Of a DNA stretch of 59,113 nt, positions 6,822 to 13,225 are shown in pieces. This DNA is from Candidatus Kapaibacterium sp. (lineage in GTDB: Bacteria > Bacteroidota > Ignavibacteria > Kapaibacteriales > UBA4661): assembly GCA_025363605.1 (NCBI GenBank), contig JANYDO010000135.1:1-59113 (forward strand). The letters are read 5' to 3'. Each line of letters opens with the position of its first letter. Within the stretch, counting starts at the first letter, position 1. Under the pieces are notes generated by a model. That model had not been told where the DNA came from and searched no databases. It worked only from the letters and a program-made list of their open reading frames with translations. Position numbers and translations under genes: made by a program.

Positions 6822-6894
<73 letters not shown>

Positions 6895-6907
6895 CAAACA
6901 AAGTCTT

Positions 6908-6950
6908 AAAAGCCGCTTAGAATCTTATGTTCTGAGCGGCTTTTCTTTTG
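6908..6950 (+). terminator. Rho-independent terminator after tRNA-fMet
   Basis: Stem AAAAGCCGCTTAGA (6908-6921) / TCTGAGCGGCTTTT (6931-6944), with one G:U pair, running into TTTTCTTTT. Confidence 0.75.
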
Positions 6951-6985: not shown

Positions 6986-7066
6986 TTACCGCCCCTCCAC
7001 CACCCGAATCTCCTCCGCTGCCCAATCATACAACTCATACACCAACGCATTTATGGGTCGCTCTGT
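6986..7066 (-). pseudogene. Orphan 3'-terminal remnant (~26 codons plus stop) of a type IIG RM gene paralogous to the one at 9066..13046
   Basis: The reverse-strand translation ...TERPINALVYELYDWAAEEIRVVEGR* aligns with the intact gene's C-terminus ATDRAIDALVYGLYDLTAEEIAVVEGR*. DNA identity is ~85% over ~70 nt (6987-7053 vs 9067-9133). No similarity continues upstream and no start codon is present. Confidence 0.7.
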
Positions 7067-7235
7067 TGGTACTACTGTGAACAATATGTTGAAAATATGT
7101 GAATTTTTTGTAACTTCGCGTCCGAAGAGAGCGTCAATACAGGCGTTCAAGAATCTCTGTTTAAGAATATAGATTTTTTCGGACTTAGATTATTTTCTCA
7201 ATTTGCTTTGCCTCAATTAGCAAACTGGCTGCTGT

Positions 7236-7955
7236 ATGACCAAAATTCCCAAAAGAATCACTCCTTGTCCGATTGCCAATGCAACGGTAGAGTTTCGCTT
7301 TGCAACGGAGTGGGATGTAGAACGGCTTCGTGAAGAAGTATATTCGCGTGTAAAAGACCAATATCCACCATTTGAAGAACTTCCTATCAAACAGATACCC
7401 CAGGAAATTTTAGAACAAGAGAACGCGCTTCGGTATCAACCTTATTACCAAGCAACAACATCTTCATTTATACTGCTTCTTGGCGCTCACATGATTTCCG
7501 TTGTCAATGCCACACCATATCTTGGCTGGGAGGCATTACAATCTGAATGTCTTAGAATATGGAAGATGGTTGAGGAGCTTGATGCGGTGATAAAGATTGA
7601 GCGGCTTGGGCTGCGATATGTCAATATTTTTGAAGATATTGATGTTTTCCCTAAAACTCATATTTCGCCGACGCTCACAATAGAACAGTCTAATTTTAAG
7701 CAAGGAAAATCATACTTTCGCACGTTCTTTAGTCGTGATGGTTTTAGTTGCCTGCTCCAAGTCTCAAATGAGCTTATAGAGTCACAGCAACAACGTACTG
7801 GTTCACTCATAGATATTGATGTTTCGCTTGAAAATCCTCCTTTACAAGATACTACAACCAGTACCACACTTGACTTGGCACATACTATTGAAAAAGAGTT
7901 GTTCTTTGGATTATTGCAACCCGAATTTTTGAACACTTTTAGCCCGGAGTATTAA
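7236..7955 (+). CDS. Hypothetical protein, TIGR04255-like (function unknown)
   Basis: 239-aa ORF with no competing frame. The N-terminal PIANATVEFRF pattern and the length match my recollection of the uncharacterised TIGR04255 family, but this was not verified by search. First gene of a three-gene cassette. Confidence 0.6.
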   Translation: MTKIPKRITPCPIANATVEFRFATEWDVERLREEVYSRVKDQYPPFEELPIKQIPQEILEQENALRYQPYYQATTSSFILLLGAHMISVVNATPYLGWEALQSECLRIWKMVEELDAVIKIERLGLRYVNIFEDIDVFPKTHISPTLTIEQSNFKQGKSYFRTFFSRDGFSCLLQVSNELIESQQQRTGSLIDIDVSLENPPLQDTTTSTTLDLAHTIEKELFFGLLQPEFLNTFSPEY

Positions 7956-7957
7956 CT

Positions 7958-8464
7958 ATGCCTAATGCACTTGCATATACCACACAACCTCCGTATGACA
8001 ATGTGAGGTTTTCTCCACATCCAATCACATTTAATCTCTTTATTGATTCCTCTTTGAAAATCTCTCAGCCGAATTTTGATTTTCCACCTTCTTTGAAAAA
8101 ACTTTCCCCAAAGGCTGTTGAGGTATTGGGAGAGCATAATACCAGACGATTTGAGGAGCTGTCAGCACTAAAGGACGGCTGGGATTTTGGTCGCGGAAAA
8201 GCTCTGAATTCTGATTCATTACGGACAATAGAGTTGTTTTTGCGCTCTTACAACTCATTTCCCGAACGGTGCTCATTATTTCTATCGGCACGAGGAAATC
8301 TTGAATTAGCTTGGGATGCTGGAGATGATATGGTCAATTCTCTTGAGTTTTATCCTGAGCATATTGCCTATTACATCGAAGCCACAGACGATGAAGGTGA
8401 GGTTTCTCTGACAAACATTCATGCGCTTGTTCACAAACTTTTGTCCACAAAGAAGAATGCCTGA
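7958..8464 (+). CDS. Hypothetical protein (168 aa), no family recognised
   Basis: Starts 2 nt after the stop of the upstream gene. It is acidic, with a LKDGWDFGRGKAL...LELAWD segment. Same strand and compositional style as its neighbours. Confidence 0.6.
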   Translation: MPNALAYTTQPPYDNVRFSPHPITFNLFIDSSLKISQPNFDFPPSLKKLSPKAVEVLGEHNTRRFEELSALKDGWDFGRGKALNSDSLRTIELFLRSYNSFPERCSLFLSARGNLELAWDAGDDMVNSLEFYPEHIAYYIEATDDEGEVSLTNIHALVHKLLSTKKNA

Positions 8465-9056
8465 GATTCAACGCGGCGTACCGTGTGCGCCCGAGGAAAA
8501 AATCGTCCGTGCAATCCTGACGACTGACTATGATTCAAAAACTAATCTCCTCAAACGCTCACTTTTTGAGACCGATAACAACGGCACAGATATTTCTGTA
8601 AGCCGCCTTGCTGTGCTATCTGTATCGGAACTGTTTCCAATTTTTGCCGGCGATTTGGATACGCCACCCGATAGACTCGTTATTCAGGTTGGAACAATCG
8701 AAGTGCAAGACCTGATTCAAATGGGCGAAGACAACCTCACATCCGAAGCAAAAAAATTGGTTCGTCTGAGTGTGATTCAAGACCCTTGTCCTTTACCACT
8801 CAGAGGTCGGGATTACAAGCAATATCCCATTTCTTCATTTAATGAACTGTGTCAATGCTCCCACAATCCAAACCAACACTACTGCCCTGAAAATGCAGGT
8901 AAAGCGACAAAGCCATGCCCACGTAACTATGCCCATGCAGAAATTCGTGGTGATAAAATTAGCAAAGGACTTTCAAGTAAAATTGTTGCAGCAATCCAAA
9001 AACATCTTTATATCTATCCTCAACGAGTGGAGTACGTGCCAATAAAGACACCGTGA
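8457..9056 (+). CDS. Hypothetical protein (~199 aa) with a Cys/His-rich C-terminal segment, no family recognised
   Basis: From ORF 8421..9056. I prefer the ATG at 8457, which overlaps the upstream stop (ATGCCTGA), a classic coupled arrangement. It contains CQCSHNPNQHYCPENAGKATKPCPRNYAHAEIRG. Confidence 0.55.
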   Translation: MPEIQRGVPCAPEEKIVRAILTTDYDSKTNLLKRSLFETDNNGTDISVSRLAVLSVSELFPIFAGDLDTPPDRLVIQVGTIEVQDLIQMGEDNLTSEAKKLVRLSVIQDPCPLPLRGRDYKQYPISSFNELCQCSHNPNQHYCPENAGKATKPCPRNYAHAEIRGDKISKGLSSKIVAAIQKHLYIYPQRVEYVPIKTP

Positions 9057-9065
9057 ATCCCCCCC

Positions 9066-10736
9066 CTACCGCCCCTCCACCACCGCAATCTCCTCCGCCG
9101 TCAAATCATATAACCCATACACCAACGCATCTATCGCGCGGTCGGTCGCTTCCAGCGTGGCTTTTAGTGCGGCGGCTTCTTGCTGCTTTTTCTCGAAGTA
9201 GGTCAGCAGTTCTTCCTTTTTGTCCAGCGATAGTTGCACTTTGGCTTTTTTCAGTTCTGCTTCCAGTTCTGCCCACGTGAGCGTGTCCCATGCTTGGAGT
9301 TTTGTGCTGGGTTTCGTTATTCCCGTTTCCGTGCAAAGCAGCGTCAGGACTCGCTTGCGGAGGTCGGAAAGGCTCTTGTTTGTGGCAATCATTGTTTCAA
9401 CGTAGCTTCGTAACAAGGGAGTATGCTCCCTTGTTTCCAGATTGGACGGGATGGGCAGTTGCACCAAGTACATCGGTTTATATTCGTAGAAGCCGCCTTG
9501 CTTCGTGGCTGCGATGCTGTGCATGAAAAAGTCCGTTGCTTTCGAGTTCAGCACAGCGAGCAAGGCTTTGTCATCGACACCGATAATGCTTGTTTTGTCG
9601 TTGGAGTAAAAACCACTTACATCCACAAGGTACGATGCGGTCTGCACGATTGCCGGAACGATAATCTTCGGCTTTTCAAATTCTTCGTAATACTCACACG
9701 CTCTGAGTTCCCACCAATACTCGCCTTTGTCAGAGCGCTTTCGGGCAGCATCAGCAAATGGAGCAAGATGCTTGAAAATAGCCGGATATGAGACTTGAAG
9801 CCATTCCCACGCTTCTTCCGCAACAAGGGAGCATGCTCCCTTGTTCAATTCGTAGTGCCGTCGCGTCCAACCCTTCGGAAAGAGTATCAAATAATTCTCC
9901 GCTTCCGGCGTTGCATACCGCTTCACATCTCGCCCCGCAAGAAATGGCTTCAGTACATCCGCGCTTTTCGGGTCTTCAGCGATAAGACGGGCGCGGGTGG
10001 CTGCGTCCACCACAAATGCTTCGTTCAAACCTGTCAATACACCGCGATAAATTTTTCCCTGCACATACTCGCCAAGCGGCGTACCTGCTGCGCGGAGTTT
10101 TGCCAGCAGCCCGCTTACTGCATTGTTGGTCAGCGACCAGCCTTCATCGTGCAGTTGTGCCGTACTCACGGCAAAGCGCATCCGCTCTACTTCTGCTAAA
10201 AGGCTCTCAAAATCAAGCGTGGTGAGGTTTGCAGCCCTAAACGCTTCTTTCGGTGCGCCTTTGCGAATCCGCAGCACACACGGGTACGCAATCGCGTCCT
10301 CAAACACGGGTAAATCGCCAAAATCAATAATTTCCTCCAACGATTGCGCTTTCATCCAGCGACGAAGCGGCTCTCCGTAGCTTGCCCGCATCCACTTATT
10401 GGCAACAATGATACTGTACAAACCGCCCTCTTTCAGCAATCGGACGCTTTGCTCCATGAAGTAGGCGTATAAATCCGCGCTGCCATGCGCAACGGTGTAG
10501 TTTTGGGCAAGAAACACCTTCATTGCTTCGGGCAAAAGCTCTTGGCGAACATACGGCGGATTTCCCACAATCACATCAAAGCCGCCTGTTGTGATTGGCT
10601 CGAAAGCGCGTTCTACGGGAGTCATCACTCGTTGAACAAGGGAGCATACTCCCTTGTTTTCGGGAAGGTCGTGTTTTATGCGGTTGTTTTCAATGTAATT
10701 CAATACACTCAGCAATTCCGCATCACTTTCAATCAA
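9066..10736 (-). CDS. C-terminal RM fragment (RAYT tail, MTase motif IV NPPY, TaqI_C-like specificity domain)
   Basis: The ORF as tracked starts at a TTG and has no convincing independent start. The first in-frame ATG is at ~10625 (MTPVERAFEPITTGGFDVIVGNPPY). It is probably not expressed as a functional unit. Confidence 0.5.
   Translation of the reverse strand: MIESDAELLSVLNYIENNRIKHDLPENKGVCSLVQRVMTPVERAFEPITTGGFDVIVGNPPYVRQELLPEAMKVFLAQNYTVAHGSADLYAYFMEQSVRLLKEGGLYSIIVANKWMRASYGEPLRRWMKAQSLEEIIDFGDLPVFEDAIAYPCVLRIRKGAPKEAFRAANLTTLDFESLLAEVERMRFAVSTAQLHDEGWSLTNNAVSGLLAKLRAAGTPLGEYVQGKIYRGVLTGLNEAFVVDAATRARLIAEDPKSADVLKPFLAGRDVKRYATPEAENYLILFPKGWTRRHYELNKGACSLVAEEAWEWLQVSYPAIFKHLAPFADAARKRSDKGEYWWELRACEYYEEFEKPKIIVPAIVQTASYLVDVSGFYSNDKTSIIGVDDKALLAVLNSKATDFFMHSIAATKQGGFYEYKPMYLVQLPIPSNLETREHTPLLRSYVETMIATNKSLSDLRKRVLTLLCTETGITKPSTKLQAWDTLTWAELEAELKKAKVQLSLDKKEELLTYFEKKQQEAAALKATLEATDRAIDALVYGLYDLTAEEIAVVEGR
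9412..9435. repeat. REP-like palindrome P1
   Basis: AACAAGGGAGtATGCTCCCTTGTT, 1 mismatch to the perfect 24-mer. Read as TREHTPL in the RM frame. Confidence 0.9.
9822..9845. repeat. REP-like palindrome P2
   Basis: AACAAGGGAGCATGCTCCCTTGTT, perfect. Read as NKGACSLV in the RM frame. Confidence 0.9.
10635..10658. repeat. REP-like palindrome P3
   Basis: AACAAGGGAGCATaCTCCCTTGTT, 1 mismatch. Read as NKGVCSLV. It lies immediately after the RAYT-like ...NRIKHDLPE. Confidence 0.9.
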
Positions 10737-10745
10737 ATTACAGTG

Positions 10746-13046
10746 CTATTTCTGCGCCCAGAGATGGCGTTGTGCGAGACCTCTTCGCGTCTTGGTATCG
10801 GATGCGGTATCGTCTAACAAGGGAGCATGCTCCCTTGTTAGTACCGGGTTGTTATGCTGTCCGCTCTCGTCTGGCAAGGGAGCATGCTCCCTTGTTAGTA
10901 TCGGTAGTAATATCGAGATTTGAGGGACAGTATATCCATGTGCAATGTTGAATTTTCGTGCAGATACAGCTTTTAATTTTTGCACAATTTTATCCCGTTC
11001 ATGCTCTTCACAAACAAGTACCAAATGAACATGGTCTTGGCAGATATTATAGCCCAATACGCGCAGTTTATCTTCTCGAATAATATCTGCAATATATTCT
11101 GAAATCTCTATTTCTTCTGATTCGTTCAGTACCGTTGGCTCTTGAATTGGGTTTTGCCCCTTGTTCATGCGGAGATACTTGATAACTGCTTCGTATTCTA
11201 TCATACGCTCGCTTACACGACTGTTATGTGTTACCCACGTGATGTGATAGGCTTGAAGGCACTTCTGCGAAAACACTTCAGGAAACGCCGCCGACCAATC
11301 AAACGCCGCTTCTCCGGCTACATTCGGGTCGTCCACGAGCGAGTTCCCGCACCGAATCGTGTGGTCGAGCGTGGTAAGTTCTTTCGAGCGGTCTGCCGTT
11401 TTGAGCCAGAGCGAAAGCCGCGTAATTTCTACGCTTTCGGGGTTCACGTCCACGCCGTACAGGTTATTTTGCAGAATGTCTTTTTGCAAGTCGCCGGTGG
11501 TGGTTTGTCCGAGTTGCAGCCGCGCCAATTCAGCATTGACGCGCTGCCCGTCGGCATAAAGAAAATCAAACACCTGATTCAAAAATGCACCGCTCCCGCA
11601 CGCAGGGTCGCACACTTTCACGGCAGCAAGTTTCTCGCGGTACGCCGTCCATGCTGCGATGTGCCGTTCAATGGTTTTGTTGTACGTCAGGACGTTCCGT
11701 TTGTCGCGTTTGATGCTTTGCCAATCGGCATCGGTGATGTCGGGAAGTGCATCAAAGCCACATTCTGCCTTGCGCTCTTCCAAATACCCGCCAACGGTCT
11801 CCTGCACGATATAGCGCGTAATGTATTCGGGCGTGTAGAAAATACCGTCTTTTTTGCGCTTGCCCTTGCTTGCATCGTGCGCCGCGCCTGCGATTTGGGC
11901 TTTCAGTTCTTCAATGTCGGTGATGGACTGCTCGAAAATATGCCCCAGAATATTGACATTCAGGTCGCTGTCGAAATCATACTTTTCCAGCGCGATGATA
12001 TGCTCCAGCACGCTGTCCTTGATAACCAAAGCATCCAACTCGGCATCATCGGCAAATAAACCGCCGTTGAATTTGTTGATGTGTTCTTCGGGATAGCCTT
12101 CGTTGATAGCCACAAACAAGCCGCGCACTCTGTCCCAAATTTTCGTGTCGCTGCGGTTGAATTTGTCGCGCTTCACGTCTTTCAGAAGCCGCCGGAAGGT
12201 GCGCCGGGGAATGATTTCTTTGTCTTCCACAAAGCAGATAAAAACAACGCGGTCGAGCAGCTTTTGTGTTTTGTTCAGCACAAGCAATTCCGGTGCGGAA
12301 GGATTTGCCGCGCACAAGTGCTTGAAAAGGTCGTTGCGGGCTTGTTTGTATTCGGCGTAAAATTCTTTGGTGATGCGGTCTTCTTCCTTCACCCGCGCAG
12401 CAAAGAGTTCTTCGGTGCGAGAACTGGTCTCGTTTTCCGTGCTGCTTTCAGACAACGGCAAAAGATTGTCGCGGTGCATGAGAAAGAGCAAACGCCTCAG
12501 TTCATGCGATTCGGTGAGACGCGAAAGCTCGAATCGCTCGTATTTGGATTGGTCGGAATGATGATACAAGCGGAGTTCAAGGTAATTCGAGACAATCACC
12601 CATTTGCAGCTTCCACCAGCCTTCGGCGCGTAGCTGAATGCTTGCTCAACAGGAGTGCGTTTGTCATTTTGGCGTTTTTGCGGTTTGTCGAGGTCGTGCG
12701 TAGCGTCTTTGAGTTCAATCACAGCATAGACGCGGGAAACGCTTTCGCTTCCCTGCATTGCAAAAAAGCCCAGCACACCGTCCGGCACGGAACTATCGGC
12801 GTGAGAAGTTTGATTTTTGGTGAGCGTCCACGCGCCGCTTGCACGGTTATCGCTGAAGCCGAGCATATCCCGAAAAAAGTGCGCGAGAAATTGTCCGTCC
12901 AGTTCAGTTTCTTTGGCGGCAAGAATGCTGCGATTATCAATCATACGCTTCCACTCTTGAGCGCGAAGGAGAGCGTTTTCGGGCGGTTCGGGCAAGGAAG
13001 CAAGGTGCTGCTGGAGAGACTTCGGCGAAAAAAGCGGTGTGTGCAT
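10746..13046 (-). CDS. N-terminal RM fragment (nuclease plus MTase motif I) fused in-frame to the N-terminal two-thirds of a RAYT-like transposase; ends at TAG
   Basis: Start taken at the ATG at 13046 (MHTPLFSPKSLQQHL). The RM sequence runs to ...FPEVFSQK (to ~11262). It then reads straight into CLQAYHITWVTHNSRV...QDHVHLVLV...RHLWAQK*. Confidence 0.7.
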   Translation of the reverse strand: MHTPLFSPKSLQQHLASLPEPPENALLRAQEWKRMIDNRSILAAKETELDGQFLAHFFRDMLGFSDNRASGAWTLTKNQTSHADSSVPDGVLGFFAMQGSESVSRVYAVIELKDATHDLDKPQKRQNDKRTPVEQAFSYAPKAGGSCKWVIVSNYLELRLYHHSDQSKYERFELSRLTESHELRRLLFLMHRDNLLPLSESSTENETSSRTEELFAARVKEEDRITKEFYAEYKQARNDLFKHLCAANPSAPELLVLNKTQKLLDRVVFICFVEDKEIIPRRTFRRLLKDVKRDKFNRSDTKIWDRVRGLFVAINEGYPEEHINKFNGGLFADDAELDALVIKDSVLEHIIALEKYDFDSDLNVNILGHIFEQSITDIEELKAQIAGAAHDASKGKRKKDGIFYTPEYITRYIVQETVGGYLEERKAECGFDALPDITDADWQSIKRDKRNVLTYNKTIERHIAAWTAYREKLAAVKVCDPACGSGAFLNQVFDFLYADGQRVNAELARLQLGQTTTGDLQKDILQNNLYGVDVNPESVEITRLSLWLKTADRSKELTTLDHTIRCGNSLVDDPNVAGEAAFDWSAAFPEVFSQKCLQAYHITWVTHNSRVSERMIEYEAVIKYLRMNKGQNPIQEPTVLNESEEIEISEYIADIIREDKLRVLGYNICQDHVHLVLVCEEHERDKIVQKLKAVSARKFNIAHGYTVPQISILLPILTREHAPLPDESGQHNNPVLTREHAPLLDDTASDTKTRRGLAQRHLWAQK
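10816..10839. repeat. REP-like palindrome P4
   Basis: Perfect 24-mer, extendable to 26 nt (TAACAAGGG...CCCTTGTTA, 10815-10840). Read as TREHAPLL inside the RAYT-like region. Confidence 0.9.
10875..10896. repeat. REP-like palindrome P5
   Basis: gCAAGGGAGCATGCTCCCTTGTT, with the left arm shortened by 1-2 nt. Read as TREHAPL. It lies 35 nt from P4. Confidence 0.85.
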
Positions 13047-13225
13047 GGGAAACAGCAAAAAACATGATGAAGAATCAGAAAATTCCGATGGCACAAAATA
13101 CAAAAAAGCGAAAGAAACAGCAAGATAGCGGCTTCCAAAGATTCAAGATTCTGTTTTTGTCGGTGCTTTTGTGTATTTTGCGTATTCATTCCACATTCTC
13201 CTGTAACACCAATACAACCAATCTC

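Follow-up and report, generated by a model that had tools for sequence, protein, structure and literature searches.

Type II and tripartite toxin–antitoxin (TA) modules are built from small, adjacent and coupled genes, in which an enzyme-like protein is encoded behind an acidic partner; they are sporadically distributed, travel on mobile elements, and the two members of the pair co-diversify. The sensor–effector systems of the P2 old/tin type combine a conserved component with swappable partners (Rousset et al. 2022, PMC9122126), and the interval from gpA to the portal gene of P2-like phages has been described as a hotspot for defence genes (PMC9122126). PDC systems, a set of 145 untested candidates, were predicted from their location inside BREX, DISARM or type I restriction–modification (RM) loci (bioRxiv 10.1101/2024.01.29.577857). 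Here we analysed a contig of 59,113 nucleotides from Candidatus Kapaibacterium sp. (JANYDO010000135.1; termed the window), which carries a three-gene operon, g1–g2–g3, that is a credible candidate for a phage-defence or TA-like module, judged from its sequence and genomic setting. We consider the chances to be about evenly balanced that this trio is a conflict system of the defence or abortive-infection type. We would place it as a new candidate within the broad class of defence and TA-like cassettes, outside any described system and with proteins lacking characterised relatives.

The operon comprises the following genes:
7236–7955, forward strand: g1, 239 amino acids, acidic; TIGR04255-family protein, candidate sensor or regulator
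7958–8464, forward strand: g2, 168 amino acids, acidic; constant partner of g3, candidate neutraliser or adaptor
8457–9056, forward strand: g3, 199 amino acids; member of a family of ~130-amino-acid proteins, here with a Cys-rich insert of ~50 amino acids; candidate effector enzyme

A first-pass annotation, made from the sequence alone, had delineated these three same-strand open reading frames and proposed them as an undescribed defence module. The gene boundaries were confirmed exactly, including the gap of 2 nt between g1 and g2 and the 8-nt overlap of g2 with g3 (ATGCCTGA at 8457–8464). The alignment of homologues favours the g3 start at 8457 and lends no support to a longer g3 starting from the ATG at 8421. 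The dN/dS values for g1, g2 and g3 were in the range of 0.12–0.39, indicating purifying selection on all three genes. The tight spacing is a general property of these operons, with the g3 start located -8 to +11 nt from the g2 stop in 32 of 33 non-identical loci and a g1–g2 spacing of -4 to +3 nt in 18 of 20 loci.

The close subfamily comprises seven distinct loci, namely the window, L001/2 (from a Kapaibacterium metagenome-assembled genome), L003/4, L005/6, L007/8, L009 and L010–13. On all readable contigs of close g2 or g3 homologues the order and strand of g1–g2–g3 were retained (7/7, confirmed by hidden Markov models), and a metagenome scan for further loci of this subfamily revealed none beyond these seven. 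Among the outcomes that, according to the first-pass annotation, would speak against a module were a lack of synteny among the homologues and a confident match to a housekeeping or metabolic family; the trio stands in the same order throughout, and none of its three genes maps to such a family. Using an alignment of short g3 relatives as query against one genome per species, we identified 23 further loci in Verrucomicrobiota, Acidobacteriota, Desulfobulbaceae, Longimicrobium, Methylomirabilota and Planctomycetia. A g2-like gene lies immediately upstream of the g3-family gene in 19 of these 23 loci, preceded by a TIGR04255 gene in 14, and the g2–g3 pair was likewise present in all ten informative metagenome loci. 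The g2–g3 pair is the constant part of the system across at least six phyla and about 30 further loci.

The first gene, a TIGR04255 member in most loci, is interchangeable. In four Acidobacteriota-type loci its place is taken by an unrelated family of ~230 amino acids (hhalign against TIGR04255: probability 0.3%), for which we found no match in Pfam or NCBIfam:
L025, 4774–5472: ~230-amino-acid first gene
L029, 4796–5476: ~230-amino-acid first gene
L040, 4560–5252: ~230-amino-acid first gene
L049, 6631–7347: ~230-amino-acid first gene

Furthermore, in a P2-like prophage (L044) a 327-amino-acid protein precedes the g2–g3 pair, which is flanked by tail gene D on one side and by the umuDC/repressor genes on the other. 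The exchange also runs in the other direction, as TIGR04255 heads a second type of operon in which it is followed by a protein of ~95–115 amino acids and one of ~200 amino acids with an LSN(S/T)CD motif:
L041, 1108–2786: second-type TIGR04255 operon of phage Dobby
L042, 3501–5150: second-type TIGR04255 operon of phage VW-6S
L058, 3606–5321: second-type TIGR04255 operon of a Phocaeicola circular element
L014, 6001–7629: second-type TIGR04255 operon

The partner proteins in these operons are unrelated to g2 and g3 and were not recognised by PADLOC, NCBIfam or Pfam. The present analysis thus adds to the description of this family that TIGR04255 is typically the first gene of a three-gene operon and that the genes following it belong to at least two unrelated sets. 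Dobby and VW-6S are Pseudomonas phages, and the Phocaeicola element is a 15-kb circle in which the TIGR04255 trio directly follows the integrase. The Dobby trio abuts the portal gene, at the cos-proximal hotspot of P2, whereas in VW-6S the gene for TIGR04255 is preceded by that for the cI repressor, at the post-cI moron site. As in the P2 old/tin-type systems, a conserved component is combined with swappable partners, and related trios occupy such phage positions; however, no protein of the trio matches a system validated in that study (PMC9122126), and the Dobby and VW-6S trios have only TIGR04255 in common with the trio of the window. Neither the short g3 relatives nor the TIGR04255 trios of phages were recognised by PADLOC-DB v2.0.0.

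Within the close subfamily, g2 and g3 of the window are outliers, with dN values of 0.34–0.40 to the other six loci, whereas g1 showed dN values of 0.14–0.24 and is no outlier. The g3 genes of other close loci (L003, L007, L009, L010) differ mutually by dN of only 0.04–0.16. The stronger divergence of both g2 and g3 relative to g1 is as expected for an interacting pair. The g2/g3 variant of the window is also represented by three partial contigs (P0012, P0013 and P0163).

We next turn to the individual proteins. The assignment of g1 to TIGR04255, an unverified guess of the first-pass annotation, proved correct over the full length of the protein: residues 7–235 align to positions 1–251 of the 252-position NCBIfam model with 119.5 bits (cut-off 30; E = 2.1e-34). 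In addition, g1 matches phrog_5464, a PHROG of no known function. TIGR04255 is an uncharacterised family labelled as 'sporadically distributed', with members also in temperate phages and mobile elements; it has no described function, so that the family name alone explains nothing about g1, and a literature search for TIGR04255 and its synonyms yielded no mention in the searchable library. The AlphaFold2 model of g1 (pLDDT 81, pTM 0.81) displays a β-sheet/helix fold of two β–α–β repeats. Foldseek analysis of this model revealed a topology-level likeness to S-adenosylmethionine decarboxylase (AdoMetDC)/prozyme and to the TATA-binding protein (TBP) at a template modelling (TM) score of ~0.3, as well as one unnamed viral protein at a TM score of 0.55. 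Because the AdoMetDC and TBP matches are at the level of topology only, we do not claim homology to either. Over 28 diverse members of the g1 family the residues E19, R21, Y95, G97, W98, R123, R127, Y128, D193, D195, H216 and K220 are conserved. Several of them alternate on the predicted strands, which suggests that one charged face of the modelled sheet may bind something.

The second protein had been described as small and acidic, and its isoelectric point (pI) of 5.3 bears this out. Alignment of its homologues revealed a variable amino-terminal part of ~45 amino acids followed by a highly conserved carboxy-terminal domain of ~120 amino acids. The sole library match of g2 is to the C-terminal part of PDC-M32A, with g2 residues 62–146 aligning to positions 259–343 of the 375 positions of PDC-M32A (PADLOC, 5.3e-09), and distant g2 homologues match PDC-M32A as well. 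The likeness to PDC-M32 is thus confined to a single shared domain: g2 has 168 amino acids against the 375 of PDC-M32A, its match does not span the full length of ~375 positions, and no PDC-M32B partner adjoins it, as g1 and g3 are without any PADLOC match at E ≤ 1. Like the trio, PDC-M32 is a predicted system only.

For g3 no match was obtained in Pfam, NCBIfam, PADLOC, PHROGs or the PDB sequences. Close homologues are rare, amounting to 10 among 5.8 billion proteins, and a profile search retrieved 131 cluster representatives among 1.8 billion, mostly of ~130 amino acids. A scan of 60 members of this family yielded no Pfam family and no PDB profile match. The family core contains two invariant residues, S47 and H160, together with E14, R18, D26, R50 and N157, which are at least 90% conserved, an arrangement that looks like an active site. 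The first-pass annotation had pointed out a Cys/His-rich carboxy-terminal segment; this segment is real and carries five Cys residues that are invariant in the close subfamily (C111, C132, C134, C143, C154), but it constitutes a subfamily-specific insert of ~50 amino acids (window 8757–8935, residues ~101–160) that is missing from most of the ~130-amino-acid family. A similar insert is found in a few distant members (P0034, P0079). The segment is probably a metal-binding elaboration and not the catalytic core, to judge from its distribution over the family. A 2657-amino-acid protein with g3-like stretches (P0131) revealed no informative domains, and no close-subfamily relatives of g3 were found in IMG/VR.

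Several candidate activities of g3 were considered and rejected. An R-S-E ADP-ribosyltransferase (R18/S47-x-S49/E162) does not agree with the alignment, in which H160 and not E162 is conserved, nor is there a match to an ADP-ribosyltransferase family. The sequence AHAEI in g3 contains what we take to be the HAE motif of zinc deaminases; the short family members, however, lack the Cys ligands and a PCxxC motif, and the Glu is variable. A match of one g3-family member to MafB19-deaminase (E = 0.045) was regarded as noise. Likewise, a papain-like Cys-His enzyme using C10 was discarded, as this Cys is lost in many members.

Compared with TA modules as outlined above, the trio shares the small, coupled genes, the acidic protein encoded ahead of an enzyme-like one, the sporadic occurrence on mobile elements and the co-diversification of the pair. 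It differs in showing no sequence relation to a known toxin or antitoxin family (Pfam, NCBIfam, PHROG and PDB, searched with g2, g3 and 60 g3-family members), in lacking a DNA-binding antitoxin domain and in having a large, interchangeable third gene upstream. These properties bear on the possibility that the trio is an addiction module of the TA type, which would stabilise its integrative element or island instead of stopping phages, with g3 as toxin, g2 as antitoxin and g1 as regulator or chaperone. Such a role would account for the small, overlapping and co-diversifying genes, for their sporadic distribution among ordinary genes and for the trios adjoining the integrases of small integrative elements in L005, L009, L010 and the Phocaeicola circle. 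It has to contend with the absence of toxin and antitoxin domains just described, and with the copy in the window, which is accompanied by neither an integrase nor an element to stabilise, yet retains three intact genes under purifying selection. Altogether we hold the addiction reading to be unlikely; roles in defence and addiction can, moreover, coexist.

The surroundings of the trio define its limits as a cassette. The relevant features of the window are:
6822–6895, forward strand: tRNA-Met (CAT), initiator-like (ARAGORN; Rfam tRNA, 65 bits); context only
6987–7079, reverse strand: left repeat, in which the final ~31 codons and the stop of the RM gene recur as an orphan copy (ending in INALVYELYDWAAEEIRVVEGR, stop)
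7080–7235, forward strand: conserved non-coding leader (seven-locus alignment), presumed promoter or operator
9066–13103, reverse strand: MmeI-like type IIG RM gene (Pfam); convergent neighbour of the trio in the island
9067–9159, reverse strand: right repeat, where the RM gene has its functional 3' end, with the RM stop 9 nt from the g3 stop

The repeat remnants that had been noticed on both sides of the block turned out to be 93-nt direct repeats (6987–7079 and 9067–9159) of 80% identity. Based on peptide and blastn comparisons, the left repeat matches the RM 3' ends of six other loci. As the leader starts exactly at the end of the left repeat and the conserved unit stops at the g3 stop, the cassette corresponds to 7080–9065. 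The impression of an AT-rich block was confirmed, since the GC content of 7080–9066 is 41.5%, the lowest among all 2-kb segments of the 59 kb (mean 48.8%, sd 2.8). The low GC content and the bracketing copies of the RM 3' end are consistent with a foreign origin of the cassette, which appears to have been horizontally acquired.

A leader of ~160 nt upstream of g1 is conserved in 7/7 close loci. Within it, a 44-nt block at 7104–7147 (TTTTTTGTAACTTCGCGTCCGAAGAGAGCGTCAATACAGGCGTT) is almost invariant in all seven, whereas the proteins encoded there are only 50–75% identical; the block contains three GCGT(C/T) direct repeats. No sigma-70-type promoter was found in the leader, and the seven-locus alignment gave no indication of a structured RNA or riboswitch, with no Rfam match, negligible covariation and no covariation-supported fold. 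The trio lies 340 nt downstream of the tRNA-Met gene, whose initiator-like features, read from the sequence, are a 1:72 mismatch and GGG/CCC in the anticodon stem. A terminator scan identified a strong hairpin at 6908–6944, 3' of this tRNA, and the cassette would therefore need its own promoter.

Genomic islands that integrate at gene 3' ends, thereby duplicating them, classically use tRNA genes. Here, direct copies of a gene's 3' end likewise bracket the cassette, but what has been copied is the stretch that encodes the C-terminus of the MmeI-like RM enzyme, unlike the tRNA-gene or attC targets of such islands and of integron arrays. Copies of this RM 3' end are located on both sides of the trio in the window, L003 and L010, and copies are present in L007 as well:
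L003, 156–234 and 2227–2422: copies of the RM 3' end
L007, 7912–7988, 9896–10070 and 11936–12116: copies of the RM 3' end
L010, 5985–6056, 8044–8089 and 9020–9207: copies of the RM 3' end

In L007 the layout is trio, copy, GmrSD, copy, three genes and RM gene; in L010 it is integrase element, copy, trio, copy, DUF3800 and RM gene. The diverged copies (46–175 nt) thus separate successive cassettes, comprising the trio, GmrSD, DUF3800, a DUF4325-containing three-gene set and an integrase element. This arrangement looks like an accretion hotspot or an integron-like array at the 3' ends of MmeI-family RM genes, as far as can be judged from the layout of these loci. The splitting of successive cassettes by copies in L007 and L010, with tyrosine integrases nearby, is shared with integrating islands and integron arrays; unlike in typical islands, the lengths of the copies vary between 46 and 175 nt, and the window contains no integrase.

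The RM gene itself had been identified as a type IIG gene abutting the trio, in agreement with its MmeI_N, MmeI_hel, MmeI_Mtase/N6_Mtase/Eco57I and TaqI_C domains and the 9-nt distance between the stop codons. In the window its frame is interrupted by one in-frame stop, giving open reading frames at 10746–13103 and 9066–10736. The gene carries an in-frame IS200-like/RAYT (Y1_Tnp) segment inside the Eco57I methylase domain, and its orthologue in L003 is a single open reading frame of 1387 amino acids with the same Y1_Tnp insert. Around this segment we observed palindromes resembling repetitive extragenic palindromic (REP) sequences (AACAAGGGAGCATGCTCCCTTGTT), which are read through as 'TREHAPL' and 'NKGACSLV' peptides:
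9412–9435: REP-like palindrome within the RM gene
9822–9845: REP-like palindrome within the RM gene
10635–10658: REP-like palindrome within the RM gene
10816–10839: REP-like palindrome within the RM gene
10875–10898: REP-like palindrome within the RM gene

An MmeI-like RM gene lies convergent with the trio in 7/7 close loci, directly adjacent in four of them. Between trio and RM gene, L010 contains DUF3800, L005 an M78 peptidase and a 321-amino-acid gene, and L007 GmrSD and three more genes. The housekeeping flanks of the close loci differ (DLH–DAC; histidine kinase; DUF494–YbeY; RuvC), and the RM–trio linkage is therefore not one inherited locus. Other neighbours of the close loci include GmrSD, DUF3800, HEPN pairs and integrases, and tyrosine integrases together with HTH_17 genes are located upstream of the trio in L005, L009 and L010. 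In syntenic relatives a 96-amino-acid gene and a HEPN-domain gene, resembling an MNT-HEPN pair of the TA type, lie between the RM and DLH genes; in the window, where this pair is absent, the RM and DLH genes adjoin at ~13100:
L003, 6445–7103: 96-amino-acid gene and HEPN gene
L010, 12362–12951: 96-amino-acid gene and HEPN gene
L010, 3416–4074: 96-amino-acid gene and HEPN gene

The constancy of this linkage, found in all seven close loci and in at least three to four different chromosomal contexts, with the g3 stop only 1–9 nt from the RM stop in four loci, would be expected if the trio were a functional accessory of the MmeI-like enzyme, acting as a modulator, as a second line on restricted DNA or as a control element. 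Other cassettes nevertheless intervene between the two in some loci (DUF3800; GmrSD; M78 peptidase and 321-amino-acid protein), the trio survives in the window despite the stop in the RM reading frame, and a single N6_Mtase match was found among 105 wider-family neighbours. We accordingly regard an accessory role as highly improbable, the least probable of the explanations considered here. The same linkage could alternatively mean that the trio is cargo benefiting its carrier, helping an element or prophage to overcome host immunity such as the adjacent RM system. The location of the trio at the edges of integrative elements and in a prophage would suit such a counter-defence function, as would the acidity of g1 and g2, which resembles that of many anti-restriction proteins. 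The cassette persists, however, without any element in the window, L001 and L003, the post-cI and P2-hotspot positions typify defence morons expressed in lysogens and not early anti-defence genes, and the wider family is mostly not RM-adjacent, so that counter-defence appears distinctly unlikely.

Returning to the reading of the trio as a defence or abortive-infection system, the gene neighbourhoods give a mixed picture: the close subfamily is associated with MmeI-like RM genes in 7/7 loci, but the wider family is found mostly among ordinary genes. Within ~4 kb (105 neighbours scanned) these are mostly genes such as MoaC, MoeA, acyl-CoA dehydrogenases and glycosyltransferases, with a minority of defence type (raw counts: DUF5131, three; SNF2/PLD, two; type I and type III methyltransferases; Drt4). 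Enrichment in defence islands is therefore not general, and this is one of several observations that weigh against a defence role. The assignment remains one of guilt by association. Homology provides no sign of toxicity, immunity or enzymatic activity in the trio, and no activity can be assigned to g3, the putative effector. PADLOC v2.0.0 recognises neither g1 nor g3 nor the system as a whole, the partial match of g2 being its only response. The AlphaFold2 model of g3, calculated from a 10-sequence alignment, gave a pLDDT of 39 and was unusable. With a pI of ~6–7, g3 is not basic and is therefore a poorer fit to a nucleic-acid-targeting toxin. No g3-family genes were found in the collections of isolated phages and plasmids. 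Finally, the tRNA gene next to the trio, which had been taken as part of the island context, is probably incidental, the informative landmark being the 3' end of the RM gene.

The ordinary neighbours of the wider family also raise the question of whether the trio has nothing to do with genetic conflict and is instead a niche operon with a housekeeping, metabolic or regulatory role, with which the loose likeness of the g1 fold to small-molecule or DNA-binding scaffolds (AdoMetDC, TBP) would agree. Such an operon would hardly be expected to be as sporadic and rare as indicated by the homologue counts given above (10 close g3 homologues in 5.8 billion proteins; 131 clusters in 1.8 billion), to have a foreign composition, to be carried by mobile elements and a prophage, or to have an interchangeable upstream partner; nor did we observe co-occurrence with any single pathway among the loci examined. 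This explanation thus seems very improbable to us. The proposal of an undescribed defence module, as made by the first-pass annotation, accordingly stands in part. The conserved trio, the defence and mobile contexts of the close relatives, the prophage moron and hotspot positions of the distant ones and the PDC-M32A domain speak for it, whereas the lack of recognition by PADLOC and the mostly ordinary neighbours of the wider family do not.

Considering these data together, we propose a working model in which the block 7080–9065 would be a self-contained, horizontally mobile conflict cassette, serving in anti-phage abortive infection with a TA-like logic. Its core would be the translationally coupled g2–g3 pair. 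In this model, g3 would act as a small enzyme-like effector centred on the invariant Ser/His, accompanied by the conserved Arg, Glu, Asp and Asn residues, and g2 would be its obligate partner, keeping g3 inactive or positioning it. The upstream module, here g1, would be interchangeable and would sense or transmit the trigger, thereby freeing the effector, and the cassette would carry its own conserved leader. In this lineage, an insertion or recombination event may have brought it to the 3' end of the MmeI-like RM gene, where other defence cassettes accumulate as well. The conservation, coupling, modularity, mobility and limits of the cassette are observations, whereas the defence role, the parts played by the three proteins and any catalysis belong to the model.

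A more far-reaching version of this model can be put forward tentatively, although we consider it rather doubtful as a whole. The g2–g3 pair would then be the core of an undescribed, phylum-spanning immune system with a new effector fold and chemistry and with interchangeable sensors, of which TIGR04255 would be one, employed again by temperate phages together with different effector pairs. In this lineage it would represent one cassette type of an undescribed integron-like array at the 3' ends of MmeI-family RM genes, in which each insertion regenerates the C-terminus of the enzyme.

Weight is added to the finding by the breadth of conservation, the modularity in both directions and the array of cassettes at the RM 3' end. 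Two new protein families are defined, one of which, g3, features a compact, Ser/His-centred putative active site and has no detectable relative of known structure. The two-way swapping of partners between the g2–g3 pair and the upstream gene offers a natural experiment by which sensing could be separated from execution. Likewise, the RM 3'-end copies delimiting this cassette and its neighbours (GmrSD, DUF3800 and others) suggest a specific and searchable hotspot architecture, which could serve to find further defence cassettes in poorly studied phyla. Should the trio prove to be an immune system, TIGR04255, a family annotated by NCBI in bacteria, archaea and phages, would for the first time be placed in a functional context.

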